A DNA stretch of 64,000 bases from Clostridia bacterium (lineage in GTDB: Bacteria > Bacillota > Clostridia > Oscillospirales > Acutalibacteraceae), in assembly GCA_017524165.1 (NCBI GenBank), contig JAFWUH010000048.1:4359-68358 (forward strand), given 5' to 3'. Below, piece after piece: positions 15,128 to 45,174 of this stretch. Under the pieces are notes generated by a model, which worked only from the letters and a program-made list of their open reading frames with translations, did no database searches and was not told the origin of the DNA. The position numbers were made by a program, and so were the translations under genes. Positions within the stretch are counted from its first letter, which is position 1. Each line of letters begins with the position of its first letter.

Positions 15128-15144
15128 GATAAACTTCCTTTCAG

Positions 15145-21853: not shown

Positions 21854-23812
21854 TTACAGCTTAACAACCTGTGTCCAGCCTTGTGTATTTAATACCGGAT
21901 AATCAACTTTTTCAAAAGAAATGCCAACAAGCAATTTTCTCATGCAAACCAAGTCGTCGGTATCGACTACGCCGGAACCGTCCAAATCAGCAACAGTCTC
22001 ATTGAAGGTAACCGTGTTGTCTGCCAAGTAAGCCTTAAAGCGGAGCAAGTCTTTGATGTCCACTGCATGATCCGCGTTTATATCGCCTTCCTCCAGCGGT
22101 ACAGACGGAATCGCCGCAATGCTGTCGATTCTCAAATAGCCGTTAGGAACGGTAGTGTCAATATAAGCACCGTCGGTAACCTGGAAGGTGAAACTCTTCA
22201 ACTGGGTGAAATCCAAAGCCGAAGCTGCCGCCAAATCCACCGTCATGGTGTACCATCCGGCAGTAGCGGTCTCCTCAACAGCGATATCGTTTAACATATA
22301 ACTATACGATTTGCCGAGGTTATCGGTCAAGGTTGCCTTGATATAATCGGCATAAGCGGTTGAAACTGTTTCCCACATATCCGGATAAGTCGGAGCATTC
22401 ATGAAACGAACCTTCCAGCTTAATCTGCCATGACGGCTGATATTTACCGGATTTTCAAAGGTGTACTTTAACGGACCGATCTTGCAGCTTCCGCCAAATA
22501 CCTGCACGGTGCCGCCGCTGAATCCGTTGGGATTGCTTGTCATATTTTCATGGTCTGCTACACCGTAATAGGTCCAGCCGGAGAGATCAGAACAGTCTTC
22601 GATTACCAGTTCTGCAACTGCCGCATAATCATAACCGTTCGGAGTTACTTTAGCAACGGTGATATTGATATTGTCAAATTTGTAAATTGTATTGGCAAGA
22701 TTGGTATCCCCGGCGCCGTTTTCATTCGTGTAAATAACGAAGGAAGAAATGTTGGTTAAATCCAAGCCGGAATTTTCCAACGAAAGTGCCACATGCCACC
22801 AGCTTGCATCAATATTGGAGAATTCCATATCCAGCAGGGAGAATTTCTTCGTATTGGTGCCGTCGCCCACTTCGACACCGATTTTATCAGAATAGGCTGC
22901 CAAAATATCGGTCATCTGGTCGGTCAGGGCGCCGACGCGCAGTGCCGTCATATCCCACTCCAATGTTTTGTATCCGTCCGCATTAATCGGATCCGCCAAA
23001 TTGTAGGTCAAGCGACGCAAAATACCGTAACCGCCTTCCAACATAACAGCGTTTCCGTTTCTGCCGGAAGAACTGTTGGTAATCGCGGCTGTACCGCTGT
23101 AAACCCAACCGGCGGTGTTTTCGCACGCACACAGCGCAATCGGATCTTTGCCCGGCTCCTGATAACCGGTAGCAACAATGTTATCTAAACGGATAACACC
23201 GTCCGAAACGGTGGATACAGTCGCGCCGTCGGTCGTTGCAAAGTAGAACGCCGTGATCGCACTCTTGTCAAAGGTTCCCATCGGCGTATTGGGAGCATCG
23301 ATTTGGACGCGGAAATGTACCCATTCCGAATTAGTAGCGCTGACTGTTGTAGTCATGGTCGACAGACGGAATACATTATAGTCCGTTGCCGAAGAAGAAA
23401 GCTTTAAGAGCATCTGGTTGTTACCGTTTGTACCGTAAGCCGCCTTGATTTGCTCCCACATGGTACCTGTTCCGCCATTGTTCTTATTTTCATAAAAACG
23501 AACATCCCACTCCAAATATTTGTAGTTGGATAAATCAAGCGGTGTTTCTCCGAAACTTAATGTTACGGTGCGGAAAGCACCGTAGTTTACCGCACAGCCG
23601 ATAGCCGAATCGGAACCGTAACCGTTGTTGTTAACATTTAACGTACCGCCGCCGCCGGTTTTGGTCCAACCGTCCAAAGAGCTGCAGTCATTGACCATTA
23701 ACGGGTCTTCACCAACCGCAGAAACGGTTAAAGCACCTGTGAAAATGGACGCGCAGAGAATTGCCAATGAAAGAGATAATGCCAGGATTTTGCTGAGTTG
23801 AATTGTTTTCAT
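21854..23812 (-). CDS. Secreted protein with three type-A CBM-like modules and a C-terminal dockerin
   Basis: Start moved to ATG 23812 (AGGAGGAAG SD) giving MKTIQLSKILALSLSLAILCASIFTGALTVSA. Three modules begin DCSSLDGW, CENTAGW and DCSDLSGW. Dockerin at the C-terminus. Confidence 0.85.
   Translation of the reverse strand: MKTIQLSKILALSLSLAILCASIFTGALTVSAVGEDPLMVNDCSSLDGWTKTGGGGTLNVNNNGYGSDSAIGCAVNYGAFRTVTLSFGETPLDLSNYKYLEWDVRFYENKNNGGTGTMWEQIKAAYGTNGNNQMLLKLSSSATDYNVFRLSTMTTTVSATNSEWVHFRVQIDAPNTPMGTFDKSAITAFYFATTDGATVSTVSDGVIRLDNIVATGYQEPGKDPIALCACENTAGWVYSGTAAITNSSSGRNGNAVMLEGGYGILRRLTYNLADPINADGYKTLEWDMTALRVGALTDQMTDILAAYSDKIGVEVGDGTNTKKFSLLDMEFSNIDASWWHVALSLENSGLDLTNISSFVIYTNENGAGDTNLANTIYKFDNINITVAKVTPNGYDYAAVAELVIEDCSDLSGWTYYGVADHENMTSNPNGFSGGTVQVFGGSCKIGPLKYTFENPVNISRHGRLSWKVRFMNAPTYPDMWETVSTAYADYIKATLTDNLGKSYSYMLNDIAVEETATAGWYTMTVDLAAASALDFTQLKSFTFQVTDGAYIDTTVPNGYLRIDSIAAIPSVPLEEGDINADHAVDIKDLLRFKAYLADNTVTFNETVADLDGSGVVDTDDLVCMRKLLVGISFEKVDYPVLNTQGWTQVVKL
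21923..22087 (-). other. Type-I-like dockerin module
   Basis: Duplicated Ca-binding loop plus helix: GDINADHAVDIKDLLRFKAYL ... DLDGSGVVDTDDLVCMRKLLVG. Confidence 0.75.
22112..23704 (-). repeat. Three tandem type-A CBM-like modules (protein-level repeat)
   Basis: Each has the shared layout D-C-x-x-x-x-GW ... GYG-x-[LF]-R ... Y-K-x-LEWD ... W-[VW]-H ... [FY]-x-x-x ... [LF]-DN-I. Confidence 0.65.
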
Positions 23813-23834
23813 CGTTCTTCCTCCTATTAAAATT

Positions 23835-26800
23835 TTACAGCCACCACGACTGTGATTGGGAAATATACCCACCGCTTCTCGAATACGGAATAATCCCGAT
23901 ATTGTTCGGCGGCGTGTTTACCGTGAGTTGTTTAACGCTGTCTGCAACCAAACGAATGCGTCCGTTTTTGTTGGTCGTGATTGAAACATTTTTTATCGGC
24001 AAAATAGAACTGGAAAGGTATAAGGAACCGCTGTTTACTTCAGCAATATGCGTTGTTTGTTCCAAATTATAATAGGTCATTTGGCAAACCAAAACCTTTC
24101 CGCCGTCTACTTGAATGGAAGCCGTACGCGGCTGACCCCATGCCTGTGTATTAAAGAGCGCCAGCGTTCCTGTTGCGGTACTGTTCATCACAATATGATG
24201 CATATCATCGGTAGCATTCATTGAAACCAATTCGGCATTGATCATTGCCACGCAATCTATTTCATGAACGACCAAGGCAGTTCTGCATCCGTCAGAACCG
24301 TGTCCGATGAAAACACCGTTGGTGCCGCCTTTCCCTTGTGAACGGAAAACCAATAAATCCTTTCCGCCGTATCCAAAGGTTCCAAGCACATGTTCCGAAG
24401 CATTATCGCCGAAAATCATGGCTTCCAAGGTCAGATTGATGGCATTGTTCAGCGCGTCGGCATTGGTCTCGCTTACGCTCAAAGTCTGGAAGTTTGCCCG
24501 CTTCCAATAATGCGGATTAAACTGAACATTTTCGACCCATCCGTTACTGTCGTTATTGCCGACAAAAATCCCCCTTCTTAACGGAGACCCGCTGACATAA
24601 CTGATATAGTGTCCATCAGACGGATTGGTGCCGAAATCCAACGCATTATACGAATTAATAAATACCGTATTAATCGCCCAGCAGTTTTGTCCGAGACTGC
24701 GTACGGTCCAGGGGTACGGAATAAAGTTTTCATAATTCTGTTCCGGATAGTAAAAACTGATTCCGTTCACGCCGGCGCCTTCTTGCAGGGAGATCAACGG
24801 CGCGGCATTTTCATTGTTTTTGCCCAAGGTGGTGCAAAGAACCGAGCCCGCCACAATCGAATGGGTCGGCACATTATAAATTCCCCGCAGTTCCACCCCG
24901 GTCGGCACGGTTAAGGGAGATGAAATATAGAACTCACCCAACGGGACATAAACCGTTCCGCCCGTTTGCGCGGCGGCGGCTAATGCCGACTGGAAAGCCG
25001 CAGTGGAATCGGTTCCGCTGACTGCGCCGTACTTGGTGACATCATATACATATTTTGAGGTCGGCGTCGGTACCGTGCGCCGATAGGTATGTGTGAAATC
25101 AGCAACCGGAAGATTCAGCGGTGTATCATCCACCAAAACAAATTTTTCCTTTCCGGCAGTCCGGGAGATGTCTTCAATAAACGGGAAGGTACATCCCAAT
25201 ACCGAAACCGATCCGGCATTTTGTTCCACTCGGACATGTTTGGTGTTCTGTGCAAAACTGCACTGCTGCAAACTCAAATTGCCGGCAGTCACCAAAACGG
25301 CATAATTCGTAACATCTTGGCAAGAAAAGTTGGAATTGGTTACTGTTACCTTTCCGTTATCTTGCGAATTCATCACAATCGGACAATTTACACTGCCGGA
25401 AAATGTTAGATTTGCGATCTCAAAACTTGCCATAAACTCCGGCTCAAATAAAAATCCGTTGGTACAGTCGGCAATCGAGACGCCCGTTAAGGCGTATCCG
25501 ATCGCATTGGTATACCGCACATCAAACGCCGTTGTGCAGTCGTGGATCGACAAATCAAATGCCTGACCGTTACTGCCGCGAACACGACCGTCGTCATTGG
25601 TATCAATATATTTTTCAAGCACGATACCACGGCTTACTCCCGAAATATCCACCTGATAAAAATACTCCCAGTCCGAACGCTGGATATAAATTCCGGTGGC
25701 ATTTTCACGGAAATATTGACGAATATTGGCGGCATTCGTTGAACTGACCGGAGAGCAGGAATTCCCGATCAAATATTCCGGGCTGATATGAATGTTTTCC
25801 AGTCTCCCGATATCCGTTACATTATTAATGCGAATCGCTTCATTTAACGAAGAAATATATACATTTTTTAAATAGTGCAATTCACTCCACGCCGTGGCGG
25901 CGTCATAGCCGACGCTGCCGCCCAGGATCGTGAGATTCATAACTGTATAGCTGTCACTGCCGACCGCAGGCAACTCGGCAATCGTCGAGCTGTATTCCGC
26001 CGTCAATCCTTTGGCGGAATCAGGATAGACAATGGTCATATTCCGAATACCGCCGCCGTTTTTTAAATTAAAGAACGGATCGGTGCATTTTGAAATATTT
26101 CCGGTTTGTACCATTAAAATCGTACCGCAACTGGCGGGTGCCGCCTCGTCCGGAGAGCGCCATTCTCCGCGCAACGTCACGCCGCTCGGAATGGTCATCG
26201 GCTTTTCACAGCGATACATGCCGGACGGCAGATATACCACACCGCCGCCCTTTGCTTTGGCGGCGTTTAACGCCCGTTGGATTGCCACAGACGAATCTCT
26301 GCTTAAATTGTTGACCGGTACGGCAAAATCACGCACCGCGTTGTAAATAGCAATGCAAAGCCCGGTACCGTCATCATACTGGAGATCCACCGCTTGCGGC
26401 TCGCCCGCTTTATAGTTTCTTTTTACCGATGCCGGCACATCTTCAACCGAAACAATCGGCGTATTATCCGTAATTTGCCGGATCCCCTGCAATTGATCGG
26501 TTGCCTCTTGCGCCGCGGTTGACGCGTAAATATCGTCCATGGAGATAACATAACCGCCGCACAGATCATCTTCTGAATAAAAGACGGAAGCGTTTCCGTT
26601 ATAATCGGTCGCACAGATATACGCACGGAACGCCAATTTTGTATTGGGTGCAAGCGACGAGAAATAGTGCGACAACGGAAGCACAAAAGCCAGCGTCTCT
26701 GCGTCATTCGGTAATGCATAAACCGTTCCGGCAGAATAATTACCTAAAAGCTTTGCATTGCCGAATTCTACCGGTTCCCCGACAAAGTTGGCGGCAACGC

Positions 26801-27557
26801 CGATCAAATACCCGACTTCCACCAACATGTAGTTATTTTTCAACTGGTCGAATGTCGCCTTTGAAACCGTTGCCATAATACGAACTTCGTCGGTTGCGTT
26901 TTTTTGAAATCCGACAATTTTAGGTGAATAATTGTGATCCATATTGGCGACAAAAGAATCAATTTGACATGTTACCGCCGGAATCGAATTGTTGAATCCG
27001 TTGGTTTCACAAACCGCCACACCAACAGCGGTAATCCTTGTTAAATCCAGCCCTACGCAATCGGAAAGGCGCACGATACCGTGATACCATCCGTTTGCGG
27101 TCACAGTAAAGTTTATTTTCTTTTGCGGGAATTTATACTCTCTTCCTGCCGCATCTTTCAAGACAAAGCAAAAAGTATCTTTATAAGCATTCCGGACATC
27201 GGGAAACAAATCGGTTTGTCCGCTTTTGGAAAAAATACGCATGTCCCAATCAATACGGTCAAATTCCGTCAAATCGCTTGCCGCGAAAGAATAGGTTAAC
27301 CGTCGAACAGAACCGTAACCGGCTGTAACCTCCAGACCCGTTCCGTCTGTTCCCTCCACGCTGTAATCTATCTCGCTGTTTCCGCGGTACTGCCAACCGG
27401 AAGTACAGTCGGACAGCACCAACTGCTTTGCAGCGGCAGAAACGGAAGCAAACGGCATCGTGACCGCCAGCAAAACAACGGCAAGCAAAACCGAGAAGAA
27501 CCGTATGGAAAAAGAATACCTTTTCTCATTCATACCGATCTTATTATCTTTTTCCAT
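23835..27557 (-). CDS. Secreted 1240-aa enzyme: one type-A CBM-like module, a beta-sandwich, and two tandem right-handed beta-helix domains (Pectate_lyase_3 type, GH55-like architecture)
   Basis: Signal peptide ...FFSVLLAVVLLAVTMPFASVSAAA. Two copies of the beta-helix N-cap signature: SSVAIQRALNAAKAKGGGVVYLPSGMYRCEKPMTIPSGVTLRGEW and YDVTKYGAVSGTDSTAAFQSALAAAAQTGGTVYVPLGEFYISSPLTVPTGVELRG. Paralog of ORF 53520..56327. Confidence 0.8.
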   Translation of the reverse strand: MEKDNKIGMNEKRYSFSIRFFSVLLAVVLLAVTMPFASVSAAAKQLVLSDCTSGWQYRGNSEIDYSVEGTDGTGLEVTAGYGSVRRLTYSFAASDLTEFDRIDWDMRIFSKSGQTDLFPDVRNAYKDTFCFVLKDAAGREYKFPQKKINFTVTANGWYHGIVRLSDCVGLDLTRITAVGVAVCETNGFNNSIPAVTCQIDSFVANMDHNYSPKIVGFQKNATDEVRIMATVSKATFDQLKNNYMLVEVGYLIGVAANFVGEPVEFGNAKLLGNYSAGTVYALPNDAETLAFVLPLSHYFSSLAPNTKLAFRAYICATDYNGNASVFYSEDDLCGGYVISMDDIYASTAAQEATDQLQGIRQITDNTPIVSVEDVPASVKRNYKAGEPQAVDLQYDDGTGLCIAIYNAVRDFAVPVNNLSRDSSVAIQRALNAAKAKGGGVVYLPSGMYRCEKPMTIPSGVTLRGEWRSPDEAAPASCGTILMVQTGNISKCTDPFFNLKNGGGIRNMTIVYPDSAKGLTAEYSSTIAELPAVGSDSYTVMNLTILGGSVGYDAATAWSELHYLKNVYISSLNEAIRINNVTDIGRLENIHISPEYLIGNSCSPVSSTNAANIRQYFRENATGIYIQRSDWEYFYQVDISGVSRGIVLEKYIDTNDDGRVRGSNGQAFDLSIHDCTTAFDVRYTNAIGYALTGVSIADCTNGFLFEPEFMASFEIANLTFSGSVNCPIVMNSQDNGKVTVTNSNFSCQDVTNYAVLVTAGNLSLQQCSFAQNTKHVRVEQNAGSVSVLGCTFPFIEDISRTAGKEKFVLVDDTPLNLPVADFTHTYRRTVPTPTSKYVYDVTKYGAVSGTDSTAAFQSALAAAAQTGGTVYVPLGEFYISSPLTVPTGVELRGIYNVPTHSIVAGSVLCTTLGKNNENAAPLISLQEGAGVNGISFYYPEQNYENFIPYPWTVRSLGQNCWAINTVFINSYNALDFGTNPSDGHYISYVSGSPLRRGIFVGNNDSNGWVENVQFNPHYWKRANFQTLSVSETNADALNNAINLTLEAMIFGDNASEHVLGTFGYGGKDLLVFRSQGKGGTNGVFIGHGSDGCRTALVVHEIDCVAMINAELVSMNATDDMHHIVMNSTATGTLALFNTQAWGQPRTASIQVDGGKVLVCQMTYYNLEQTTHIAEVNSGSLYLSSSILPIKNVSITTNKNGRIRLVADSVKQLTVNTPPNNIGIIPYSRSGGYISQSQSWWL

Positions 27558-27578
27558 GCACTTTCCCCTTTTTTTACA

Positions 27579-29651
27579 TTATTTTGTTTGCAAAAAAACA
27601 AATTGATGACCGTATAAAACGCCATCCGAAAAACCGCCGGAAGCGTAAGCCTTTTTAAATGCTGTGTTGACTTCATATTCATACGGTGTATGGTTAATGA
27701 TCAACATTCCGTTTTCAAACGGTATGCGTTCAATATTGCGCTCCACACCGTCCGAAAGCTTTAAATCCTCTGTGAACCATTTTTCAACCGGTGTACGACG
27801 AATCATGGTCAAGGGATACTGTGCCTGTCTGCCATAAGCCACCGGCACCGGCTTTTGGGCGCGTTCGCAATAGCATCGACCGAAATCAATGCCGGAGACA
27901 TAGACCTGTCCTTTGCCGATTTTCTTGCATCCGAGTGCCGTCAAACCGTCGCTGCAGTAAGGTGCAAGGGTCTCTACGCCTTTAAAACTCATAAAGCGTT
28001 CCGAAAACTCGGTCACTTCTTCTTCAAAGATAAAGGAATCCGATTTATGCGGCACCGCGGTAATTCCAAAGATTTCATGTAACCCGCAGGTCGCGCCTGC
28101 CAAAACCGTTCCGCCGTTTTCGACATAGTGTTTCAATGCCGTTTCCAACGAAGCATCGGGCAGGTAAGCATAGAACGGATCACTCGGCAGGACGATCAGT
28201 TGATAGTCTGCCAGCGTCTGTTCGCTAATCTGTGAACGATCCAAAATATCCGGGTTGATACCCAGATCTGCCAACTGCTGATAATGACCTAAAAGGTCGT
28301 TACGGCTGGCACGGAACAAGGCGTCATCTATACGACGGTTATCCATTGTAAAAGAGGCGTAAGGAAACACGATTGCCGCCTTTTTATCGGCAATACGCTT
28401 GCCGGAAACCTGACGAACCTCAGCAAACCAATCCAGTGCCTTTTTCACCGATTGCTTCCGGTTTTTCTCCCACTTGCCGAAATTGCCGCCGTCATCCAAA
28501 CCGCTGTAACCGTAGAAAAACATATCGGTTGCACCGGCGCCGTAACAGGAGGCAATGGACTCTGCCGGCGTGACATAAGCGTAAATATCATTGTATAAAT
28601 AGCGACCGAGGAAAAGTCCCGCAACCGGATCTTTTCCGTTACAGGCACTGCGTAAAATCGAGTTCTCGCAGGATACGGCATAGCAGTTTGCTTCCCCGTA
28701 AGCGTCGGCGGGCAGGGTGTAAAAAGAGGGCGAATCCAAATATTTTGCCAAACGCCACAAATCCAAGCCGCGCTCGCTGATCTCCACCCAGTCGGTCATA
28801 TAATACTTCCATTGTGACAGGCAGTCATATAAAAAGATTCCGGGCAGTTCTTTTCGCACCTGATCGGTGAGTTTTGCATAGAATTCTTCCATATAATCCT
28901 GTCGGAAAAGCATATTGTCGCGGTGCATCAGCATCCGCGGCGTCGGTTGGGCGGCTTTGTAATCCTCCGCCGTCATGACCGGCCAAAGATCGGTCATAGA
29001 CAACGCTTCAAAGCTTTCCGCCGTCCATCCGTAGGTTTGATTCAGCGCCCCAATCGTTTGATAGCGACACTGTAACCAATCCAGATATACCGCTTTCCCA
29101 TCTTCGTCAAAGGATGGGAAAATAGCGGGACTGTGATAAAAATAACAGGGAATCTTTTCGTTGCCGTTTTCATCGACGGCCTTCGCCGCCGCTTCTTTCG
29201 CCAATTTACGGTAAAGATTTACCGTGTGATCGGTCATGGCACGAATCTGTTCCTCATCCCACATACGGTAGCCGCGAAACGGCTTGCCGTCGCGATCGGT
29301 CACCGGACGAATAAAGTCGGGCGCGCTGTCGCGAATGTGCGGATAGAGGTTATCCCCGTTATAAAACAAGGTCAAGAAGTTGATACCCATGCCGTTTTCA
29401 GCACATTTTTCCACCATAAAGCGTTGCATGGCAACATAATCCGATTCTGTCCCGTTTTGGAAAAAGTCTGTAAAATCTTCCCACAGTTTGGAATCCAGAA
29501 TAATGGAATTGAAGCCCATGTCCGCAATCTCTTTCATGCCTTCGCAAACCAACTCCCGGTTGGAATGATAAGGTTCAAAAAAGTTGCCGAACCAAAGGGA
29601 AAAATGAGGTCTTTGTTTTCCTTCGGAACATTTTTCTTGACTGAAAAGCAT
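27579..29651 (-). CDS. Cytoplasmic GH42-like (clan GH-A TIM-barrel plus amidotransferase-like trimerisation-type domain) putative glycosidase
   Basis: No signal peptide. MKEIADMGFNSIILDSKLWEDF and YLDWLQCRYQTIGALNQTYGW resemble the GH42 N-terminal barrel. The C-terminal segment AAIVFPYASF...YQLIVLPSDPF...ENGGTVLAG resembles the GH42 middle domain. Family call is tentative. Confidence 0.5.
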   Translation of the reverse strand: MLFSQEKCSEGKQRPHFSLWFGNFFEPYHSNRELVCEGMKEIADMGFNSIILDSKLWEDFTDFFQNGTESDYVAMQRFMVEKCAENGMGINFLTLFYNGDNLYPHIRDSAPDFIRPVTDRDGKPFRGYRMWDEEQIRAMTDHTVNLYRKLAKEAAAKAVDENGNEKIPCYFYHSPAIFPSFDEDGKAVYLDWLQCRYQTIGALNQTYGWTAESFEALSMTDLWPVMTAEDYKAAQPTPRMLMHRDNMLFRQDYMEEFYAKLTDQVRKELPGIFLYDCLSQWKYYMTDWVEISERGLDLWRLAKYLDSPSFYTLPADAYGEANCYAVSCENSILRSACNGKDPVAGLFLGRYLYNDIYAYVTPAESIASCYGAGATDMFFYGYSGLDDGGNFGKWEKNRKQSVKKALDWFAEVRQVSGKRIADKKAAIVFPYASFTMDNRRIDDALFRASRNDLLGHYQQLADLGINPDILDRSQISEQTLADYQLIVLPSDPFYAYLPDASLETALKHYVENGGTVLAGATCGLHEIFGITAVPHKSDSFIFEEEVTEFSERFMSFKGVETLAPYCSDGLTALGCKKIGKGQVYVSGIDFGRCYCERAQKPVPVAYGRQAQYPLTMIRRTPVEKWFTEDLKLSDGVERNIERIPFENGMLIINHTPYEYEVNTAFKKAYASGGFSDGVLYGHQFVFLQTK

Positions 29652-29661
29652 AAGTATTACC

Positions 29662-32223
29662 TCACTTCAACAGTAATGTCTTGATCTCTTTCGGAGAGAA
29701 TTGAAGCGTAACGGTTTGTGCGGTTACCGCCATCGGGGCACCGGTCGCTTCTTCCAGCAAATTCGCTTCGCAAACCGTCGTCAATCCCTGCGGCAGACGC
29801 AGGGAAACGGCGTTTTCGGTCTCGCGCAAATTGTAAAGACGCAAAACGAGCTGATCGCTGTGATCCGCTTTCTTAAAAGCGGTATTCCAAACACCGCTGC
29901 CGTCGATCGAGAACAAGCCGTTTTCAAATGATCCGTCACAGACCTCCGGATGGCGGATCTGATGCGTATACAGATCCCCCGAAGCAAACTGCAATGCCGA
30001 AATTTCAAATTGCTCAAACTCATCGGCGGCGCCGACATAAATCTCATACGCCGCGGTATTTACACCCTTGCATTGTGCGTCAGGCGTCGGGAAATCGCCC
30101 CAGTCGCCTAACTGATCCACACAACGAAGCAGATTCAGGCAAAGCGTATTACTGCCGTCACGCAACACCTCATATTCATACAGCGCGCGTGTGCCGATCA
30201 ACAGGGAATCAGTACTTCCCTGCAATCCGACAAAGCTCTGTGCTCTTTGTTCGTTGGTCGGCCATTTCCACGCCGGACGGGTTGCAATCGTACGGCGCAC
30301 CACATCAAACTGACCGTGTGCCAAAACATCGGATGTGTCGATTTGATTACGGAAAATTGCTCTCAAACGGTGACACTCACTGGCGTTATCCATTTGAACC
30401 GAAACCGCGATTTTACGGCTGAATTTTGTCAGCGTAACCTCAGTTTTAATGCCAAACGGCACCTTCTTGTCACTGTAACAATTTTGTTTACGGTCGAAAC
30501 TTTCAGGCAAAAGCAATTCCTGCGCAATGCCGAAAGTGACGAAATCTTTACCGACATGTTCCACCGTGATCTCGGCTTTTTTGCCCTCGGTGGTCACGGC
30601 TTCACCGCCGTTGCCTTTATAGAGATACTCATCCCCGATATCGGCGGTGTCTTCATAAATATTCAAGCCGTCATAGACCTTGCCGGTCTTTTTATCGGTG
30701 ACGGTCAGACTGCCGTCCTCTTTGATTTGCAATGCAATCCATTCATTTTCGGCACCCTGTGCGGTATGCGCCATCTTTTCAAGATCGGCTTTCGGTACGG
30801 TTGCATAGTAAACACGGTAACCGAACGCCGGAACATCTTGCGCCGCAAAGCGGAAGATATAACGGTTGACATACTGCACCACGCGGAACGCATCATCCGG
30901 TAAAGTATAGGTAAAGGTATGCGGGAACACCTGCGGATTTTCAGCAACTGTATTGCCGTTTTCATCCACCAGGACCAAAGATTCACAACCGTCTTCTTCC
31001 GGCACATCGACCACCGCCGTCACGATATCGGAGCGGCAATAAGCCGTTTGGTTAAAGACAGCCACAGGATAACCGTTATCGGTCTTTACCGACAACTTCT
31101 GCGCTACAACAGCCACCGATTCATCAATCATGGAGGTAGCACCCTCAATGACTTCGCCGAAACGAGTCATCATATCGCTGTGCACGATATCAACGCTGCA
31201 CCCGCAAATTGAGTCATGCGCATGGTTTTCCAACAGGTGTTTCCAACTGAATTTCAGATAATCGGACGGATAGTCCGCACCGAACAGATACGCTGTCGCG
31301 CCAAACGGTTCGGCGAGGCGTTCTAAGGTGTTCTGTGCCGTCCAATTCTTTTGTTTTAAATAGATTCGGGAACTTGCGGTCGAAATCAACAAACTGATTC
31401 CCGCGGTATTTTGACCGGTCATTTCTTCCGCAACCACCGGATATTGATCCTGATTCTTCTTAATCTCGTTGATATAATCGGTCAAATTACTGTGAATGAA
31501 GCACACATTGTCATCGGTCACCGCGTTTAATGCTTGCAACGCTTCGCCGAGATCCAACTGAACCGGCTGATGGTCACTGCCGTTCATGCCGAGGTAGCAT
31601 CCGCCGCTTTTAGAAGCGTTACGGAAGGCACCCAACATTTTATCGGCGCGCGCTTTTGCCTCTTGCTCGTTGCAGGGAAGCTCAGCGGCATTATTGTACC
31701 ACGGTGTGAAATGACCGCCAACCACCCGACTGCCGTCGGGTGACTGCCAAATGATTTCCGCTGTGTTTTCTACCCCTCGGCCGAAAACAACAGCATCGAT
31801 CCCGCACTTCTTGAAAATTTGCGGCATCTGCGAAATATTACCAAAGCTGTCAGGAAGGTAGCCGATTTTCTGGACTTCTACCCCAAAATCGGCTCCTGTT
31901 TGCATCCCTAACACCATATTGCGGACATTGGCTTCATCACTGGTCAGAAATTCATCCTGTAACACATACCACGGTCCCACTTTGATCCTGCCGGCGTCGA
32001 TCAACCTTTTCAAGCGTTCCCACATATAGGGCTTGATCTTCAGGTAATCTTCCAGCACAATCATCTGTCCGTCGAGGTGATAAAACTTGTATTCCGGATC
32101 CTGTTCCATTTTCTCAATCAACGCATCCATCAATTTGATCAAACGGAAACGATGTTTTTCAAAAGACATATACCACTCTCGATCCCAATGGGAGTGCGGT
32201 ACAACATGGATAATTTCTTTCAT
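29662..32223 (-). CDS. GH38 alpha-mannosidase (MngB/SpGH38-like), cytoplasmic
   Basis: N-terminal metal-site motif VVPHSHWDREWY, then GPWYVLQDEF and LPDSFG. 853 aa, no signal peptide. Confidence 0.85.
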   Translation of the reverse strand: MKEIIHVVPHSHWDREWYMSFEKHRFRLIKLMDALIEKMEQDPEYKFYHLDGQMIVLEDYLKIKPYMWERLKRLIDAGRIKVGPWYVLQDEFLTSDEANVRNMVLGMQTGADFGVEVQKIGYLPDSFGNISQMPQIFKKCGIDAVVFGRGVENTAEIIWQSPDGSRVVGGHFTPWYNNAAELPCNEQEAKARADKMLGAFRNASKSGGCYLGMNGSDHQPVQLDLGEALQALNAVTDDNVCFIHSNLTDYINEIKKNQDQYPVVAEEMTGQNTAGISLLISTASSRIYLKQKNWTAQNTLERLAEPFGATAYLFGADYPSDYLKFSWKHLLENHAHDSICGCSVDIVHSDMMTRFGEVIEGATSMIDESVAVVAQKLSVKTDNGYPVAVFNQTAYCRSDIVTAVVDVPEEDGCESLVLVDENGNTVAENPQVFPHTFTYTLPDDAFRVVQYVNRYIFRFAAQDVPAFGYRVYYATVPKADLEKMAHTAQGAENEWIALQIKEDGSLTVTDKKTGKVYDGLNIYEDTADIGDEYLYKGNGGEAVTTEGKKAEITVEHVGKDFVTFGIAQELLLPESFDRKQNCYSDKKVPFGIKTEVTLTKFSRKIAVSVQMDNASECHRLRAIFRNQIDTSDVLAHGQFDVVRRTIATRPAWKWPTNEQRAQSFVGLQGSTDSLLIGTRALYEYEVLRDGSNTLCLNLLRCVDQLGDWGDFPTPDAQCKGVNTAAYEIYVGAADEFEQFEISALQFASGDLYTHQIRHPEVCDGSFENGLFSIDGSGVWNTAFKKADHSDQLVLRLYNLRETENAVSLRLPQGLTTVCEANLLEEATGAPMAVTAQTVTLQFSPKEIKTLLLK

Positions 32224-34660: not shown

Positions 34661-34673
34661 ACTGCTCACCCCC

Positions 34674-35612
34674 TTAATCTCTTTCCTGATAGAAGGTAAA
34701 GCGATAGCAAATAAATGCAACCACCCCTAAAATCACCATAACCAAAGCAAGATAGAGCCATGCCATTGCCGAGGACGCACTGTAATTCATTTTACTGAAC
34801 GCCACATCGTCGATCAACGCCATGATTTGGTTATCCGAGCGTGTAAATCCGTCAATTACCGTGTAGATAATGTTGACTAAAATGATCGGGCTTAACAGCG
34901 GAACGGTGATCTTCCAGAAAGATTCCCAACCGTTGGCGCCCTCTACCCGGGCAGACTCGTAAACCGCGGGCGAAATGCCCTGCAAGCCGGAGAGGAACAG
35001 AATGATCTGTACGCCCGAATAGTTTACCACACTGTAAATGTTGTTGACTAAATTGACGATATAATCGACCGCTTCGGTCGGGATGTACATCTCTTGCAGC
35101 ATGATTTTGACATTGGAAATATCAAAGCCGCCTGCCGTTAATGTGGCGCCTGTTTCAATACCGGCGGCACTGCCCATGCTCTCCAAAACGGCGTTGGACA
35201 TATCGGCCTTCAAGACAATACCGGTCGCCATAACAACAGGCAGGAAGAAGATGGCACGGAACAGTCCGCGCGCCGGCATTTTTTGGTTTAAAATAACGGC
35301 AATAAACAGACTGAAAATAATAATCGCAGGGCTTTGTAACAACAGGTTGCCCACCAGAGAGACCGTGTCCCGCACGAAAGTAGCATGGGTGAAAAGCGCG
35401 TATTTGTAACTGGAAAGTCCGACAAAGCTCAACTCATATCCGCTGTTGCCAAGCTTAATATCATTCAAACTGAACCAGAATGAATTGGCAATGATCGAAA
35501 CATAAATCAGCAAGAAACCAATCACAAACGGAGCAATGAAAAACCAGCCGTACAACCCGTTTTTACGGGTTAATGCGCCTTCTTTTATTTTCTTTTTTGC
35601 ATCTTTTTTCAT
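34674..35612 (-). CDS. Carbohydrate ABC transporter permease (MalF-like)
   Basis: EAA loop YESARVEGANGWESFWKITVPLLSP, multi-TM. ATGA overlap with the upstream gene. Confidence 0.85.
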   Translation of the reverse strand: MKKDAKKKIKEGALTRKNGLYGWFFIAPFVIGFLLIYVSIIANSFWFSLNDIKLGNSGYELSFVGLSSYKYALFTHATFVRDTVSLVGNLLLQSPAIIIFSLFIAVILNQKMPARGLFRAIFFLPVVMATGIVLKADMSNAVLESMGSAAGIETGATLTAGGFDISNVKIMLQEMYIPTEAVDYIVNLVNNIYSVVNYSGVQIILFLSGLQGISPAVYESARVEGANGWESFWKITVPLLSPIILVNIIYTVIDGFTRSDNQIMALIDDVAFSKMNYSASSAMAWLYLALVMVILGVVAFICYRFTFYQERD

Positions 35613-38200
35613 TGCGCACTCCCCCGTTCTGCACGATAGTAACCGTTAGCCGGTACCGTTATTCCATCCGCTTCAATATCGGTTGCGTTATAATTGACAT
35701 AAACAGCCGTTGACGAAGCATAAACGGTTTTGAAAACGCCGTCTGCGACCTGACTGTGGTCAATGATCGGTTCCGCGGCAAGATCGCCGACCGCCTTTTG
35801 CACTTCCTGATAACATTCGACGATACGATCCTTCCATGTACCGTAATCGACCGAATACGCATTGGCAAAATCGGTAGATTTTAAGATCTCGGCATTTTCA
35901 TAAGCAAGTTCAAAGTAAAGTCCCGAACCATTTTCGATGGCTTTCAGCACCTCGGCGCGATAATTGCCCGAAAGATTCACTGCCTTGGTAGTATAATGAA
36001 CCTTTCCGTGCAAGACCATCGGTAAAAACGGAATCGCATAATCCGCGTCGGTGTAGCCGCTTGCGCTTAACGGTAGGTCGATAATTTGCGCAGCCGATTC
36101 ATAACAGTAACGGTTGCCGCCGTCTACCATCAAGCGGTACTCTTTCGACGCACTGCTCAAAACCTCTTGGGCATAGCGCTGTGCGATATCACGATTGACG
36201 CCGTTTTTCGCGTTTTTGTTACTGTTCAGATTGTTGCCCATGGTCGACAGGGACAATCCCTTGATACCGAGTTTCTGATAAGAAGTATCAAACTTCTTGA
36301 AGAATTGCAGCATCACTTCCGGGCGAAGCGCATATTTGAACGCCTTGCCGTTGACCAAGCCGGAACTGAAACGAATTTTCGTAAATCCGGCATAGGTTTT
36401 ATCCAGCATTCTGCCGGTATCTCCGGAAGCATTAAAGGCATCGAACATACCGTTACTACCGACATAAACCATATCGGCATCCATGTATAGTCCGATATTC
36501 TTTTCCTCCAATTGTTTGTTCAGCTTTTTCAGCGCTGATTTTCCGCCCAACGCCTTTTGAACCGAAGCGTCGGTATAGGCGCGTCCGGCAAGACCGTTCT
36601 TCGACCAGCCAATGTACCGCAAATCCAGCGCTTCAACGCCTTTTTCGGTCATTTCATCCGAGATAATACCGGCATCCTTAAAGGTGGTCAACGGAATCTG
36701 CCGTTTTACCGGCACAAACAGGATCTGATCCTGATAACGAACCGTGCCGTATAATCCCAACACCAACCGTAATGCCGCGTCATCCGTCTCTTTCAGGTTC
36801 AAGCTGTCACGGTAATATGCCGCCATTTGCGGATAACCCGCACCTGCATCCAAAAGCGCATACCGTATGCGGTAGGTTCCTTCGTAGCGGGATTTTTCAG
36901 AAAGTGTCCAGGAATATTTGGTATTGACATCCTTGTATTCAAAGCTGTCATAATCACTGTAGGCAAAGGATACGCCGACACGGGCATAACAGCTGGTGTT
37001 GCCGCCGGAGCTCACCACGATATCACCCATGGCTGCACCGTCTTCCACGATAGCAAACAAGCTGCCGGAAGGCGATACCATACCGAAAACAGGGATGGTC
37101 GCCGTCATTAATTTTTCGTAGCCGGCGTTATAGGATAATGCCCGGTCATAACCGTAAATCGGAATACGGACATCATTGCCGAGTTTGGTTCCCTGACTGT
37201 TGAAGCCAATCACAGCACCGCTGCCGTCGGGTACGACCGCATATCCGTCCTGCGTGCAGTCCGCCGCCGCAAAGTACTCCAATATACCGATTTCAAGTAA
37301 TTGGAAATGGCTGTCGTCATACTTGATTAAAGAGGTCGGAACGCTGACAGATAGCTCGCCGTTACTTAATTCGTATCGCACGCTGATTTCAAAGCGCGGA
37401 TTGACGCTTTCAGTTTCGGAAGCGCCGACCGTTTTTAAGTCGCGATCCATATCGTCAAAGGTATATCCGCCTTCGGCTAAATAGCCCTCCAACTCCGCCA
37501 TTTCGTTTTCGGTGACCTGCTTTAACACATAAATCGGCATTTCATCAATGACAGGGAATTTTTCCCGAATCAATTCAATTTGATTTTCAGGTGTTTTCTC
37601 GGCGTCATACAATTTGTAAAATGCCTTCATTCTGGTCTGTTGACGCTTGGAAAGTTGTTCGAGGACTTTATCAAAGCTATCCGTCGGCATGGCGGCAGGT
37701 AAAAGCGTACGCTGTTCCGCACGACCGATCACCATGTCGACCTGAACCCCGTTCTCCAGCCGTTTCAAGGTGTATTGACCTTTCGCAATACACTCGTTAA
37801 AGCTGAAGATCTCCGCAATATTTTGCTGTGCGTTCATATAGGTCAAGTGCAATTGAGAAGCAATTTTTACTTTTTGCGTCTCCACCGATTTGCTGTCTGC
37901 AGCCAGATTCCACGGTGTGGAGAAATACAAACCGCTGTCGGATTGCAAAGCAATATCGCAGGTAGCCGGGTCAAAATACAATCGGTTTTTGCCGTCAGCG
38001 GCGACTTCGGTCATCTGTGACAACCGTTGCTCAGCCGATTCATAAGCGGTAATGGACGATGCAAAACTGTCAACCTTCCACTCCTTGCCGTCGTTGTTCG
38101 CAAACGGTTCATAGGATATTTTGAGCTGTGCCGCTGACGAACAACCGCAAAGGAAAACCGCAATGAGAAGGAATGCAGTTATTATTCGAATTTTTTTCAT
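35609..38200 (-). CDS. 863-aa lipoprotein, DUF5696-like (uncharacterised, possibly glycosidase-like)
   Basis: Lipobox MKKIRIITAFLLIAVFLCGCSS and GGGGGAG SD. Segments VVPDGSGAVIGF and AIPFLPMVLHGKVHY recall the DUF5696 family. This is from memory, not verified. Confidence 0.55.
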   Translation of the reverse strand: MKKIRIITAFLLIAVFLCGCSSAAQLKISYEPFANNDGKEWKVDSFASSITAYESAEQRLSQMTEVAADGKNRLYFDPATCDIALQSDSGLYFSTPWNLAADSKSVETQKVKIASQLHLTYMNAQQNIAEIFSFNECIAKGQYTLKRLENGVQVDMVIGRAEQRTLLPAAMPTDSFDKVLEQLSKRQQTRMKAFYKLYDAEKTPENQIELIREKFPVIDEMPIYVLKQVTENEMAELEGYLAEGGYTFDDMDRDLKTVGASETESVNPRFEISVRYELSNGELSVSVPTSLIKYDDSHFQLLEIGILEYFAAADCTQDGYAVVPDGSGAVIGFNSQGTKLGNDVRIPIYGYDRALSYNAGYEKLMTATIPVFGMVSPSGSLFAIVEDGAAMGDIVVSSGGNTSCYARVGVSFAYSDYDSFEYKDVNTKYSWTLSEKSRYEGTYRIRYALLDAGAGYPQMAAYYRDSLNLKETDDAALRLVLGLYGTVRYQDQILFVPVKRQIPLTTFKDAGIISDEMTEKGVEALDLRYIGWSKNGLAGRAYTDASVQKALGGKSALKKLNKQLEEKNIGLYMDADMVYVGSNGMFDAFNASGDTGRMLDKTYAGFTKIRFSSGLVNGKAFKYALRPEVMLQFFKKFDTSYQKLGIKGLSLSTMGNNLNSNKNAKNGVNRDIAQRYAQEVLSSASKEYRLMVDGGNRYCYESAAQIIDLPLSASGYTDADYAIPFLPMVLHGKVHYTTKAVNLSGNYRAEVLKAIENGSGLYFELAYENAEILKSTDFANAYSVDYGTWKDRIVECYQEVQKAVGDLAAEPIIDHSQVADGVFKTVYASSTAVYVNYNATDIEADGITVPANGYYRAERGSAQ

Positions 38201-38217
38201 GTTGCACTCCCCCTACT

Positions 38218-40383: not shown

Positions 40384-40405
40384 ATTCTCCCTCTTTTCCT
40401 TCTGT

Positions 40406-41272: not shown

Positions 41273-41273
41273 C

Positions 41274-42170
41274 TTACGAACCCACCTTTGAAATAATTTT
41301 ACGAATAACCATGTTGCTTAATACCATGATGATAAACAGCACGGTTGCAATGGCGGAAGCATAACCCAATTCGTATTTGGTATTACCGTAATCCTGCAAG
41401 TGGTTGAGGATGGTATGCGCCGCATAGTTGGTGGACGGGAATCCGCACAACTGCGTGACAATGGTGCCGACGCCGAACGCCGCGGTAATACTCAAAACCG
41501 CACTCAAGAGCATCTGCGGACGCATAAGCGGCATCGTCACATACCAAAGCTCCTGCCAACGGTTGGTCACACCGTCAATAGCGCTGGCTTCGTAATAGGA
41601 TTTATCGACGCCTTGGAAACCGGCGATAAAGGTCAGAAAGCTGGTTCCCAAGCTACTCCATAAGGAAACGATGGCGACGATGGTCAAAATATACTTTTCA
41701 TCCTTCAACCAAATAATCGGACTGGAGATAAAGCCCATATTCATCAGGAAACCGTTCAAATAACCGTAGGCGTCACCGCTGAATACAGCTCTCCAAACCA
41801 GGTACATGTTACCCGAAATAGACGGCGCATAGAAAATCAAGGTGACAATGGCTCTGCCTACGGGTTTTAACTCGTTGATAAACCACGCAAACAAAAGGCA
41901 AAGCAGATAACCGATCGGTCCTGTTATCAATGCCAGAATAAAGGTATTGCCGATAGATTTAATAAAGATATCATCCTGCAAGAACAAGCGCGTATAGTTG
42001 GATAATCCGATAAATCCGGGCATTTCCAACATATTGAAGTCGGTAAAACTCAATAAAATCGAAATCAAAACCGGCAGAACGGTAAAGACACAAAAAATGG
42101 AAAAATACGGCAAAACAAAGGTCCACGCAACAATGCCGTGATGATTAAATTTGCTTTTATTTTTACGCAT
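41274..42170 (-). CDS. Carbohydrate ABC transporter permease (MalF-like)
   Basis: EAA loop YEASAIDGVTNRWQELWYVTMPLMRP, multi-TM. AAGGAG SD. Confidence 0.85.
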   Translation of the reverse strand: MRKNKSKFNHHGIVAWTFVLPYFSIFCVFTVLPVLISILLSFTDFNMLEMPGFIGLSNYTRLFLQDDIFIKSIGNTFILALITGPIGYLLCLLFAWFINELKPVGRAIVTLIFYAPSISGNMYLVWRAVFSGDAYGYLNGFLMNMGFISSPIIWLKDEKYILTIVAIVSLWSSLGTSFLTFIAGFQGVDKSYYEASAIDGVTNRWQELWYVTMPLMRPQMLLSAVLSITAAFGVGTIVTQLCGFPSTNYAAHTILNHLQDYGNTKYELGYASAIATVLFIIMVLSNMVIRKIISKVGS

Positions 42171-42182
42171 TTATTTCACTCC

Positions 42183-45056: not shown

Positions 45057-45071
45057 TGTCATGCCTCCTAT

Positions 45072-45083
45072 TTTGTATTATTA
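45072..45083 (+). promoter_or_regulatory. Copy of shared element (TTTGTATTATTa, 11/12) in the operon A leader
   Basis: Read directly from the sequence. Lies between the predicted operon A promoter and the SBP start codon. Confidence 0.4.
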
Positions 45084-45144
45084 TTGATATTATTTTTTTA
45101 TTATGCAAATAAAGTATACCATGTTTCAATAAAAATTTCAACAT

Positions 45145-45174
45145 ATTATACGAAATATTTTTAAAAAAAAGCAA
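45145..45174 (-). promoter_or_regulatory. Candidate sigma-A promoter of operon A
   Basis: Minus strand reads TTGCTT (45174-45169), 18-nt spacer containing a T run, TATAAT (45150-45145). Confidence 0.5.

Follow-up and report, generated by a model that had tools for sequence, protein, structure and literature searches.

What kind of system is encoded by a run of twelve genes in a Clostridia bacterium (Acutalibacteraceae), and do these genes belong together at all? We analyzed a 64,000-nt stretch of its assembly (GCA_017524165.1, contig JAFWUH010000048.1, positions 4,359–68,358 of the forward strand), hereafter the window. A preliminary description made from the sequence had proposed a single polysaccharide-utilization operon, and ORF and domain calls returned exactly the gene order that it listed, with twelve co-directional minus-strand ORFs (g1 to g12) filling positions 21854–45062 (Table 1). 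Gaps from g1 to g12 are 12, 1, 22, 17, -4 (an overlap), 4, 48, 22, 10, 21 and 22 nt, as calculated with RBS-supported starts for g7 (GTG at 34669, preferred over the longest ORF starting at 34720) and g12 (ATG at 23812). The packing is therefore as tight as had been claimed, with no gap above 48 nt and one overlap.

The ends of the transcription unit were also largely as predicted. The terminator placed at 21786–21830 was recovered as a tool-detected hairpin, and no comparable hairpin was found in the internal intergenic gaps; terminator-like matches within the operon were short and intragenic (37 observed versus 25 ± 5 expected). At the other end, the promoter motif proposed at 45145–45174 is present, but its -35 element falls under the scanner threshold and a rival site lies beside it. 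Gene order from the upstream esterase to g11 is kept in seven independent Oscillospiraceae/Ruminococcaceae MAGs (L001, L002/L007, L005, L006, L008, L009 and L011) from rumen, horse and rabbit at 42–89% amino-acid identity, a recurrence that makes the arrangement more than chance, and the AraR-like regulator occupies the same position in all of them. Based on spacing, a single strong terminator without strong internal ones and the seven syntenic MAGs, the region is best read as one operon, and it is conserved in herbivore-gut Clostridia.

Table 1. Features of the operon and its surroundings (positions are those of the window; a dot marks features without assigned strand)
Feature	Position	Strand	Basis or remark
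Intrinsic terminator closing the operon	21786..21819	-	15-bp stem, 8 GC pairs, T-tail
g12, secreted, three ~165-aa modules, C-terminal type I dockerin	21854..23812	-	likely ATG 23812
g11, secreted protein, 1240 aa	23835..27557	-	two PF12708 beta-helix stretches
g10, predicted cytosolic clan GH-A protein, GH42/GH35-related, trimerisation-type domain	27579..29651	-	weak GH42, GH42M matches
g9, predicted cytosolic GH38 alpha-mannosidase, EfMan/SpGH38/MngB type	29662..32223	-	all five GH38 domains
g8, small lipoprotein solute-binding protein (SBP), 474 aa	32246..33670	-	weak SBP_bac_1
g7, ABC permease P4	33719..34669	-	BPD_transp_1; likely GTG start
g6, ABC permease P3	34674..35612	-	weak BPD_transp_1
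g5, DUF5696 lipoprotein, 863 aa	35609..38200	-	DUF5696 E 2e-155
g4, NHL/TPR-like + Yip1 membrane protein, 721 aa	38218..40383	-	domain calls
g3, ABC permease P2	40406..41272	-	BPD_transp_1
g2, ABC permease P1	41274..42170	-	BPD_transp_1
g1, large secreted SBP (SBPL), 959 aa	42183..45062	-	first cassette gene
Divergent AT-rich promoter/operator region, g1 versus regulator gene	45063..45331	.	269 bp
Candidate promoter TTGAAA-17-TATACT with TG extension	45141-45113	-	sequence scan
Candidate promoter TTGCTT-18 nt-TATAAT	45174-45145	-	sequence scan
Divergent regulator, GntR-type HTH + LacI/PBP-type sugar-binding domain (AraR-like architecture)	45332..46417	+	
Bidirectional terminator hairpin, regulator versus upstream esterase operon	46441..46475	.	
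u1, secreted, 2054 aa, C-terminal TM anchor	46491..52655	-	SASA-type (SGNH) esterase domain
u2, 276 aa, signal peptide, one ~165-aa module, C-terminal TM anchor	52671..53501	-	
u3, lipoprotein, 935 aa	53520..56327	-	paralogue of g11 double beta-helix
u4, predicted cytosolic Ams1-type GH38 alpha-mannosidase	56338..59322	-	Ams1 E 1e-146
u6, second SASA-esterase protein	60894..63992	-	ORF continues past window end

The main new result concerns the first seven genes. The NHL/Yip1 protein, the DUF5696 protein and two ABC systems had been listed as separate parts, but g1–g7 are one evolutionary unit and not two unrelated ABC systems. We surveyed 96 loci, with denominators varying by position, for the order large SBP, P1, P2, NHL/TPR-Yip1, DUF5696, P3, P4. 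The Yip1 gene lies immediately upstream of DUF5696 in 80/80 loci and P3 with P4 immediately downstream in 70/70, while P1 and P2 precede it in 57/62 and the large SBP does so in 48/51. The Yip1-DUF5696-P3-P4 order stays constant down to ~24–30% identity, and in 9 loci NHL and Yip1 are encoded by two distinct ORFs, a fusion/fission pattern that signals interaction. This cassette is found in thousands of gut bacteria, usually alone amid housekeeping genes outside this clade: in 17 other loci, 20/20 sampled flanking genes were housekeeping (including mnmA four times, ClpB, radical SAM, IscS-like, SufBD, citrate synthase and VanY) and none were CAZymes. The cassette thus exists independently of any CAZyme cluster, and the operon is the cassette plus clade-specific add-ons. 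Similar company is kept in L012, L013 and L016, where it sits with regulators and glycan-degrading GHs; partners are GH38 in this clade, GH43/GH51 in L013 and GH78 in L012. In L003/L004, the cassette abuts polysaccharide-synthesis genes (Bac_transf, GT4, Wzy_C). We found no published locus of the same composition and no paper mentioning DUF5696 or PF18952, which fits a cassette undescribed before.

Signal peptides or lipoboxes were assigned to g1, g4, g5, g8, g11 and g12. Protein g1 carries an SPase-I-type signal, two CBM6/35-like repeats (CBM35/Golvesin_C matches below threshold) and SBP_bac_1 at residues 572–858. In g4, a signal peptide is followed by an extracellular NHL beta-propeller, a helical (TPR-like) region, a TM helix and a C-terminal multi-TM Yip1 domain. 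All four permeases of the operon are BPD_transp_1 proteins; in g6, a ~95-aa segment that is not hydrophobic separates predicted TM helices. The small SBP g8 is an optional accessory, found downstream of the cassette in 13/51 loci. By a crude heuristic classification of signal types, the small SBP is a lipoprotein in 20/22 cases, whereas large SBPs and most DUF5696 proteins carry SPase-I-type signals and would therefore need a tether. Neither an ATPase gene nor a cohesin partner for the g12 dockerin was found within the 64-kb window.

The signal-bearing proteins had been described as outside characterized families, which is true at ordinary thresholds; remote homology made two of them less opaque. 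Calling g5 DUF5696-like named the right family yet understated a full-length match. Its AF2 model (pLDDT 87) is predicted to comprise an N-terminal beta-sandwich with a helical insertion, a (beta/alpha)8 barrel and a C-terminal beta-sandwich, and Foldseek returned GH129 (E 1.8e-28 and 3e-24), then GH101 (1e-15), then GH36/GH31. Independent, collinear sequence-profile matches to GH129 chains in three segments (E 2.5e-4 and 3e-3), along with precomputed PF18952 matches on GH129 fragments, agree with the model. At an identity of only 12–13%, DUF5696 is predicted to be a remote GH129/GH101-like (beta/alpha)8 relative. No GH129 sequence match was detectable in the C-terminal half of the barrel, where catalytic residues would be expected, and these could therefore not be mapped.

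For g11, the AF2 model (pLDDT 93.5) shows two beta-helices. The protein starts with a signal peptide and one ~165-aa module, followed by a linker domain and a GH55-like double beta-helix (residues ~395–1240). Profile and fold searches both ranked GH55 Lam55A first in the PDB (E 2e-14, covering both helix caps, and E 5e-9, respectively); the fold match is weak (TM 0.33–0.37), and similarity is centered on the helix N-caps. Together with its paralogue u3, an orthologue of which is named 'GH55 protein' at NCBI, g11 appears closest to GH55 as a distant relative. The ~165-aa module has no Pfam match and is a putative carbohydrate-binding module; 12 copies occur in four secreted proteins (one in g11, three in g12, seven in u1 and one in u2). 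The esterase domains expected from the preliminary description were found as SASA-type domains adjoining the operon, in u1 flanked by its seven modules and in u6, whose visible N-terminal part resembles the C-terminal half of the module.

The recognizable glycosidases are cytosolic, as had been noted: g9 and g10 bear neither signal peptide nor lipobox. By sequence, g9 (EfMan/SpGH38, E 1e-150) and u4, the other GH38 protein, are genuine members of that family; for g10, the matches are to GH35/GH42 (E 2.8e-8 and 6.5e-6). A GH3 previously mentioned as nearby lies 17 kb off behind housekeeping genes, and nothing found ties it to the operon. The earlier interpretation is partly supported: this is a Gram-positive polysaccharide-utilization locus, and its GH38 and GH42/35-like enzymes are cytosolic, but the surface proteins are less opaque than described, the two ABC systems belong to one cassette, and GH3 membership is unsupported.

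Overall, we lean, with modest confidence, towards a two-layer operon with which an uncultured Oscillospiraceae bacterium of the herbivore gut would harvest an alpha-mannoside-containing heteroglycan, possibly O-acetylated; that the substrate cannot be named from sequence had already been said, and we agree. The genes present, their order and conservation, the distant homologies and the fixed makeup of the cassette are observations, from which we infer a physical complex, a scaffold role, enzymatic activities and a substrate. The first layer, g1–g7, would be an ancient, fixed cell-surface "process-and-import" machine, in which the Yip1 protein may be a membrane scaffold, a complex suggested by gene order alone. 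The NHL/TPR ectodomain of g4 would keep the anchor-less large SBP and DUF5696 beside the two permease pairs, and a shared ATPase encoded elsewhere would energize both. DUF5696 would be a GH129/GH101-type ecto-protein that acts as an alpha-glycosidase, or perhaps just as a glycan-binding derivative in the case of this MAG. The second, clade-specific layer would add the lipoprotein SBP g8, g11 as a secreted GH55-like depolymerase and g12 as a dockerin-tethered triple-module binding protein, with imported oligosaccharides finished by the cytosolic exo-enzymes g9 (GH38) and g10 (GH42/35-like). The ~165-aa module is common to this layer and the neighboring esterase/GH55-like/Ams1-GH38 operon, and the AraR-type regulator probably governs both operons.

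The same logic of signal-bearing endo-enzymes and esterases outside the cell, SBP/ABC uptake and cytosolic trimming is described for the xanthan locus of Ruminococcaceae UCG13, where the trimming step involves a pair of GH38 alpha-mannosidases and a pair of acetyl esterases for an acetylated alpha-mannose (bioRxiv 10.1101/2021.06.02.446819). Compared with the UCG13 components named in that source, our locus lacks GH5, PL8, GH88 and GH94, its extracellular enzymes are GH55-like beta-helices, and its seven-gene Yip1/DUF5696 double-permease cassette is not among them. YknW, also a Yip1-family protein beside an ABC transporter, is a non-transporting accessory modulating complex assembly in Bacillus YknWXYZ and sets a precedent for such a role (PMC4887032). 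YknWXYZ, however, belongs to the MacB-type exporters and carries a peptide toxin outward, whereas g4 accompanies SBP-dependent type I importers and has a large NHL/TPR ectodomain. DUF5696 shares its three-domain fold with GH129 (NagBb alpha-N-acetylgalactosaminidase; ZgGH129 3,6-anhydro-D-galactosidase) and GH101 endo-alpha-GalNAc-ases, but its catalytic barrel half is unalignable by sequence, the window copy lacks Asp661, and DUF5696 genes invariably lie between a Yip1 gene and genes for ABC permeases. Similarly, GH55 exo/endo-beta-1,3-glucanases (PcLam55A 3EQN, CtLam55 5M5Z, MnLam55A 8JHH) resemble g11 in having two tandem right-handed beta-helices in one chain, a likeness known from fold and profile, while the partner genes here point to mannosides and not laminarin. 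Bacteroidota Sus-like systems (SusC/D core) share the concept of an invariant uptake core with varying CAZyme sets; the cassette proteins and envelope are entirely different, and most cassettes are without adjacent CAZymes.

Cutting at the surface, part of the earlier scheme, is uncertain for g5 itself, which reads NSNKN at residues 659–663 where the family motif is NSDKD. Position 661 is the family's most conserved barrel Asp (144/151 representatives, and all syntenic orthologues), and the window protein has D661N plus D663N. A catalytically dead g5, acting as surface glycan-binding protein or adaptor and leaving cutting to the GH55-like proteins, is possible but doubtful, and would be compatible with the preferred reading. 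Both substitutions use AAC codons and are thus not a single miscall, although errors in a single-MAG assembly are possible. Asn also occurs in 4/151 sequences, including the window's own, so the position may tolerate it; the remainder of g5 is well conserved, and a role of Asp661 as nucleophile or acid/base is unsupported given the lack of alignable GH129 sequence there. That g11 and u3 are instead lyases, epimerases or adhesins is quite unlikely. Mannuronan C5-epimerases, PL6 alginate lyases, RbmB lyase and PfbA adhesin score only slightly weaker than GH55 (tailspikes also match), and the TM-score to GH55 is low. Yet GH55 ranks first by profile and by fold, both helix domains are aligned only by GH55 and lower-scoring two-domain PL6 alginate lyases, the partner genes (GH38, GH42-like) are hydrolases for neutral sugars, and the locus holds no uronate-processing genes (GH88, GH105, kdu).

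At the level of the whole operon, two independent CUT1 importers, each with its own SBP, could simply lie beside unrelated NHL/Yip1 and DUF5696 proteins that each bind or cut on their own. The two permease pairs and the two SBPs fall into commonplace Pfam families, and in this clade g8 directly follows P3/P4; but most loci have no such second SBP, and the rigid Yip1-DUF5696-P3-P4 order is unexpected for unrelated neighbors, which makes this arrangement very unlikely. A primarily housekeeping envelope function, in turnover or recycling of the cell's own wall, exopolysaccharide or a ubiquitous community glycan, is unlikely as well, though less so. Loci with only housekeeping flanks suggest that the primary role of the cassette may not be dietary glycan foraging, and the polysaccharide-synthesis neighbors in L003/L004 point the same way. 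Exopolysaccharide depolymerization typically involves beta-helix enzymes and O-acetyl esterases, and the g11 fold search returns tailspikes and RbmB. On the other hand, SBP-dependent BPD_transp_1 systems import external solutes, plant- or glycan-degrading GHs accompany the cassette in this clade and three further loci, and a dedicated sugar-responsive regulator is present. If the envelope function were nevertheless the original one, the cassette would have been co-opted here, and the operon might act on exopolysaccharide, bacterial or self, instead of a dietary or host glycan.

Twelve minus-strand open reading frames (g1 to g12) occupy positions 21854-45062 of the window (see table). The preliminary description had called them a packed, co-directional operon, and ORF calls, Pfam domains, intergenic gaps and a terminator hairpin all agree with that gene order. 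With RBS-supported start codons, the gaps from g1 to g12 are 12, 1, 22, 17, -4, 4, 48, 22, 10, 21 and 22 nt, and terminator-like matches inside the operon are all short and intragenic. The promoter proposed earlier is present in the sequence, though a rival site competes with it. Inspection of signal peptides and lipoboxes (found on g1, g4, g5, g8, g11 and g12, and on neither g9 nor g10) likewise upheld the division between a signal-bearing extracellular set and two signal-less glycosidases. Transporter, regulator and CAZyme genes are co-localised and co-oriented, and the operon is an unusual yet recognisable Gram-positive polysaccharide-utilisation locus (PUL). Scanning the window for Rfam families and tRNAs gave no match, and an NCBIfam search of its proteins returned nothing beyond sub-threshold matches.

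Features of the window; domain assignments of g1 to g12 are from Pfam
Feature	Position	Strand	Description
GH3 gene	2712-4961
Secreted protein gene	5181-9827	-	1548 aa, adjoining GH3
Housekeeping block	10000-18000		EngB-like GTPase, Lon, NAPRTase, ArgRS
Terminator hairpin	21819-21786		15-bp stem, T-tail
g12	21854-23812	-	dockerin
g11	23835-27557	-	PF12708 beta-helix, two stretches
Module copy in g11	~26950-27420		~165-aa module
g10		-	weak GH42/GH42M
g9		-	GH38
g8		-	weak SBP
g7		-	permease, pair with g6
g6	34674-35612	-	permease, pair with g7
g5	35609-38200	-	full-length DUF5696, E 2e-155
g5 residues 659-663	36212-36226		NSNKN
g4		-	NHL + Yip1
g3		-	permease, pair with g2
g2		-	permease, pair with g3
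g1		-	SBP_bac_1; CBM35/Golvesin_C below threshold
Competing promoter candidate	45141-45113		TTGAAA-17-TATACT
Proposed promoter	45174-45145		TTGCTT-18-TATAAT
Bidirectional hairpin	46441-46475		beyond regulator
u1	46491-52655	-	2054 aa, SASA esterase, C-terminal TM anchor
u2	52671-53501	-	276 aa, anchored protein
u3		-	935-aa beta-helix lipoprotein
u4		-	Ams1-type GH38
FAD-dependent oxidoreductase	59427-60812	+	PF12831, E 3e-101

Upstream of the operon, a divergent regulator joins a GntR HTH to a LacI-type sugar-binding domain, an architecture shared with B. subtilis AraR. Past the regulator and its hairpin lies a second minus-strand unit (u1 to u4), followed by the oxidoreductase, which is encoded on the plus strand and separates u4 from the gene for a second SASA-esterase protein (u6). 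Downstream, the operon is followed by SbcCD and further housekeeping genes. A nearby GH3 had been counted as part of the glycan system; this found no support, the two being separated by some 17 kb that carry genes for Lon, EngB, NAPRTase, ArgRS, a racemase and SbcCD. G+C is 0.51-0.545 in the housekeeping block versus 0.44-0.50 in the flanking glycan loci, and the sole Pfam match to the secreted protein adjoining GH3 is a sub-threshold PA14. Loci of other MAGs (L001, L002/L007, L005, L006, L008, L009 and L011) share the whole gene order, beginning with the esterase and running past the regulator to g11, at 42-89 % amino acid identity, with the permeases, g4, g8 and g10 best conserved and the DUF5696 and beta-helix proteins least. 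The nearest genomic relatives were Oscillospiraceae/Ruminococcaceae MAGs of rumen (RUG), horse faeces and rabbit; a genome scan with the closer DUF5696 alignment (A2) returned only 7 near relatives, and exact look-ups of two proteins, the DUF5696 of the window and P0052 (a g11 paralogue), gave no record.

The first seven genes recur well beyond this clade. Distant DUF5696 homologues (24-30 % identity) are found in the same order: large solute-binding protein (SBP), permeases P1 and P2, NHL/TPR-Yip1 protein, DUF5696, permeases P3 and P4. A different DUF5696 subfamily then served to retrieve 80 metagenomic loci; all ORFs were typed by HMMs built on the proteins of the window, and counts over the 96 loci in all were limited to those with sufficient flank. 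The Yip1 gene lies directly upstream of DUF5696 in 80/80, P3 and P4 directly downstream in 70/70, P1 and P2 upstream in 57/62 and the large SBP upstream in 48/51. Only 13/51 have a small SBP after the cassette, and 6 more have one upstream of it. In 9 loci (L014, L070, L079, L081, L085, L087, L091, L093, L095) the NHL/TPR and Yip1 parts are separate adjacent ORFs. Overall, DUF5696 and the Yip1 protein are genetically inseparable from a four-permease type I ABC importer set, and the cassette is widespread, rigid and uncharacterised. SBP_bac_1 receptors and four permeases, as in CUT1-type importers, are present, with no ATPase in the operon or window; a missing ATPase gene is usual in those Firmicutes systems that rely on shared MsmK/MsmX-type ATPases, as may be so here. 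A heuristic classification assigned cleavable-type signals to the large SBP and to the majority of DUF5696 proteins, and a lipoprotein signal to 20/22 small SBPs. In distant loci (L003, L014), P3 and P4 are 386-426 aa against 288-298 aa for P1 and P2, atypically long or with extra loops, and in g6, the P3 of the window, ~95 non-hydrophobic residues separate two predicted TM helices.

Gene content around the cassette varies. All 20 flanking genes sampled from 17 loci are housekeeping genes and none encodes a CAZyme; they include mnmA (x4), ClpB, radical SAM, citrate synthase, IscS-like, helicase, U32, M24, VanY and ABC-F genes. The long-DUF5696 subfamily occupies recurring chromosomal sites, next to mnmA in 4 loci (L057, L061, L076 and L077, upstream of the cassette), ClpB in 2 and radical-SAM genes in 2 (L044/L055, L048/L083), CAZymes being absent nearby. 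Exceptional CAZyme-rich contexts are those of the window clade (GH38, GH42-like, GH55-like), of L013 (GH43/GH51 and AraC) and of L012 (GH78 and dockerin). In L003/L004, polysaccharide-synthesis genes (Bac_transf priming transferase, GT4 and Wzy_C polymerase, 16266-20281) directly follow a distant cassette.

The extracellular DUF5696 protein had been listed as of unclear family; fold and profile searches now place it remotely. An AF2 model of g5 built from 23 homologues (pLDDT 87, pTM 0.84) consists of three domains, the middle one a (beta/alpha)8 barrel, and its top Foldseek matches in the PDB are GH129 enzymes, 5opq (ZgGH129, E 1.8e-28) and 5wzp (NagBb, E 3e-24), at target-normalised TM of 0.64-0.70; GH101 (~1e-15) and then GH36/GH31 rank next. 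An independent sequence profile matched GH129 chains (E 2.5e-4 and 3e-3) at 12-13 % identity, the aligned segments being collinear, and PF18952 is precomputed on GH129 fragments in a large protein database. At E<=10, Pfam returned PF18952 alone for g5, with no GH101 or GH129, and DUF5696 does not belong to either family at the HMM level. Model and profile together thus make DUF5696 a remote relative of GH129/GH101, outside those families proper. Single-sequence phmmer of DUF5696 against the PDB gave nothing useful, a profile of the C-terminal half of the barrel had 0 matches there, and GH129 retrieval with a NagBb fragment brought up only short, frameshifted fragments. The family comprises 6,543 clusters at 50 % identity (E<=1e-3), mainly in gut and digester Clostridia, and named members are "hypothetical protein" entries of Oscillospiraceae or Bacillota MAGs. 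Our literature search found no mention of DUF5696 or PF18952, and nothing relevant for Yip1 combined with SBP and GH.

Polar residues conserved across the family include D325 and D352 from the N-domain, D574 (D/E) and D661 in the barrel, and R670, N696, H731 and N742. Asp661 is the most conserved barrel carboxylate, kept in 144/151 representatives and in every syntenic orthologue. Where the family has NSDKD, the window protein carries two Asp-to-Asn changes, both with AAC codons. With N661 in this position, the DUF5696 of this MAG may be catalytically dead, a catalytic role of Asp661 being putative: barrel profile, GH129 retrieval and Pfam at E<=10 gave no alignment that would match the catalytic residues of NagBb or ZgGH129 to positions of DUF5696.

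Among the remaining enzymes, g9 and u4 are cytosolic GH38 members with all GH38 Pfam domains above cut-off; g9 matches 3lvt (E 9e-151) and is close to EfMan and SpGH38, and u4 matches Ams1 (E 1e-142 to 3e-146). The g10 protein scores 23.1 bits for Glyco_hydro_42 (cut-off 21) and 38.5 bits for GH42M; its orthologue profile finds GH35 (7vkw, E 2.8e-8) and GH42 (4ucf, E 6.5e-6), matches reached via the profile only, as single-sequence phmmer against the PDB gave none. Two related CBM6/35-like repeats lie in the N-terminus of g1. In g12, a type I dockerin reaches 27.9 bits (cut-off 22.9) and has counterparts among the dockerins of the PDB, while the large ORFs of the window include no cohesin. Finally, a ~165-aa module (DC..L.GW ... 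hRhDNh) occurs in 12 copies across two adjacent operons and four secreted proteins (7 in u1, 3 in g12 and 1 each in u2 and g11). Pfam at E<=10 returned nothing for it or for the g11 N-terminus, and we consider it a candidate new carbohydrate-binding module family.

In g11, the AF2 model of residues 395-1240 (pLDDT 93.5) shows two beta-helices, so that, as in GH55, two tandem beta-helices share one chain, in agreement with the two PF12708 stretches. The best PDB match is the GH55 enzyme Lam55A (3eqn; profile E 2e-14, fold E 5e-9), yet TM is only 0.33-0.37 and single-sequence phmmer did not find GH55. Since epimerases, PL6 lyases, tailspikes and an adhesin score close behind, g11 and its paralogue u3 could instead be lyases, epimerases or adhesins; this seems quite unlikely to us, as their partners act on neutral sugars and uronate genes are absent from the locus. 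One u3 orthologue is named "GH55 protein" by NCBI. The best homologue of g11 in our search was 66 % identical, with no identical entry, while g5 of the same contig was found at 100 %. Another contig of the MAG carries a 54 %-identical g11 paralogue (IKI29_05165), so the genome, with g11 and u3, encodes no fewer than three proteins of this GH55-like clade.

As for the substrate, the presence of two GH38 enzymes speaks for alpha-mannosides, and that of SASA domains for O-acetyl groups. The resemblance to GH55 would fit beta-1,3-glucan-like or fungal-wall material, but too weakly to be relied upon. Secreted proteins would capture the polymer via the shared module and the dockerin, then de-esterify and depolymerise it; the cassette would process and import the fragments, and the GH38 and GH42/35-like enzymes would complete their breakdown in the cytosol. 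Having cleavable-type signals and no lipobox, the large SBP of the cassette and the majority of DUF5696 proteins would need a tether in a Gram-positive cell. The Yip1 protein may be the scaffold: NHL and TPR domains mediate interactions, the NHL and Yip1 parts occur both fused and split, which points to an interaction, and a Yip1-family protein, YknW, is known to assist the assembly of an ABC transporter (PMC4887032). More speculatively, DUF5696 may feed P3/P4 directly, since these usually lack an SBP of their own and P3 has the extra ~95-aa loop.

Taken to its full extent, the cassette would be an unrecognised surface cleave-and-import complex, a Firmicutes counterpart of Sus in which a Yip1 scaffold seats a GH129-like ecto-enzyme, the founder of a new GH family, on P3/P4 and couples hydrolysis to uptake; we advance this tentatively, as possible but somewhat unlikely. 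That the cassette instead serves a housekeeping or self-glycan role and was co-opted in the window clade is a little harder to credit: the stand-alone occurrences and, in L003, the neighbouring EPS genes favour it, but regulators and dietary-type glycosidases in several loci, together with the importer chemistry, oppose it. Two independent importers with unrelated neighbours are contradicted by the invariant gene order and are decidedly unlikely.

Among Gram-positive PULs, loci such as the UCG13 xanthan locus are nearest in logic to the window operon; there, endo-enzymes and esterases act outside the cell, uptake is by an ABC system and GH38s work in the cytosol (bioRxiv 10.1101/2021.06.02.446819). 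The enzyme set of the window operon differs, and identity with the xanthan locus was rejected, GH5, PL8, GH88 and GH94 being absent here. We found no paper describing the transporter core. For rumen glycan degradation, the new GH55-like clade, the likewise new ~165-aa putative CBM and the unusual Asp-to-Asn DUF5696 variant offer leads. Three results take DUF5696 from an anonymous domain to testable hypotheses: it is GH129/GH101-like, it belongs to an invariant seven-gene cassette with a Yip1 membrane protein and two ABC permease pairs, and this cassette either stands alone or forms the core of a PUL. If the cassette is a coupled processing-uptake machine, it would change the view of glycan capture by Gram-positive gut bacteria, would probably extend the GH classification by one family and would improve the annotation of thousands of "hypothetical" genes.
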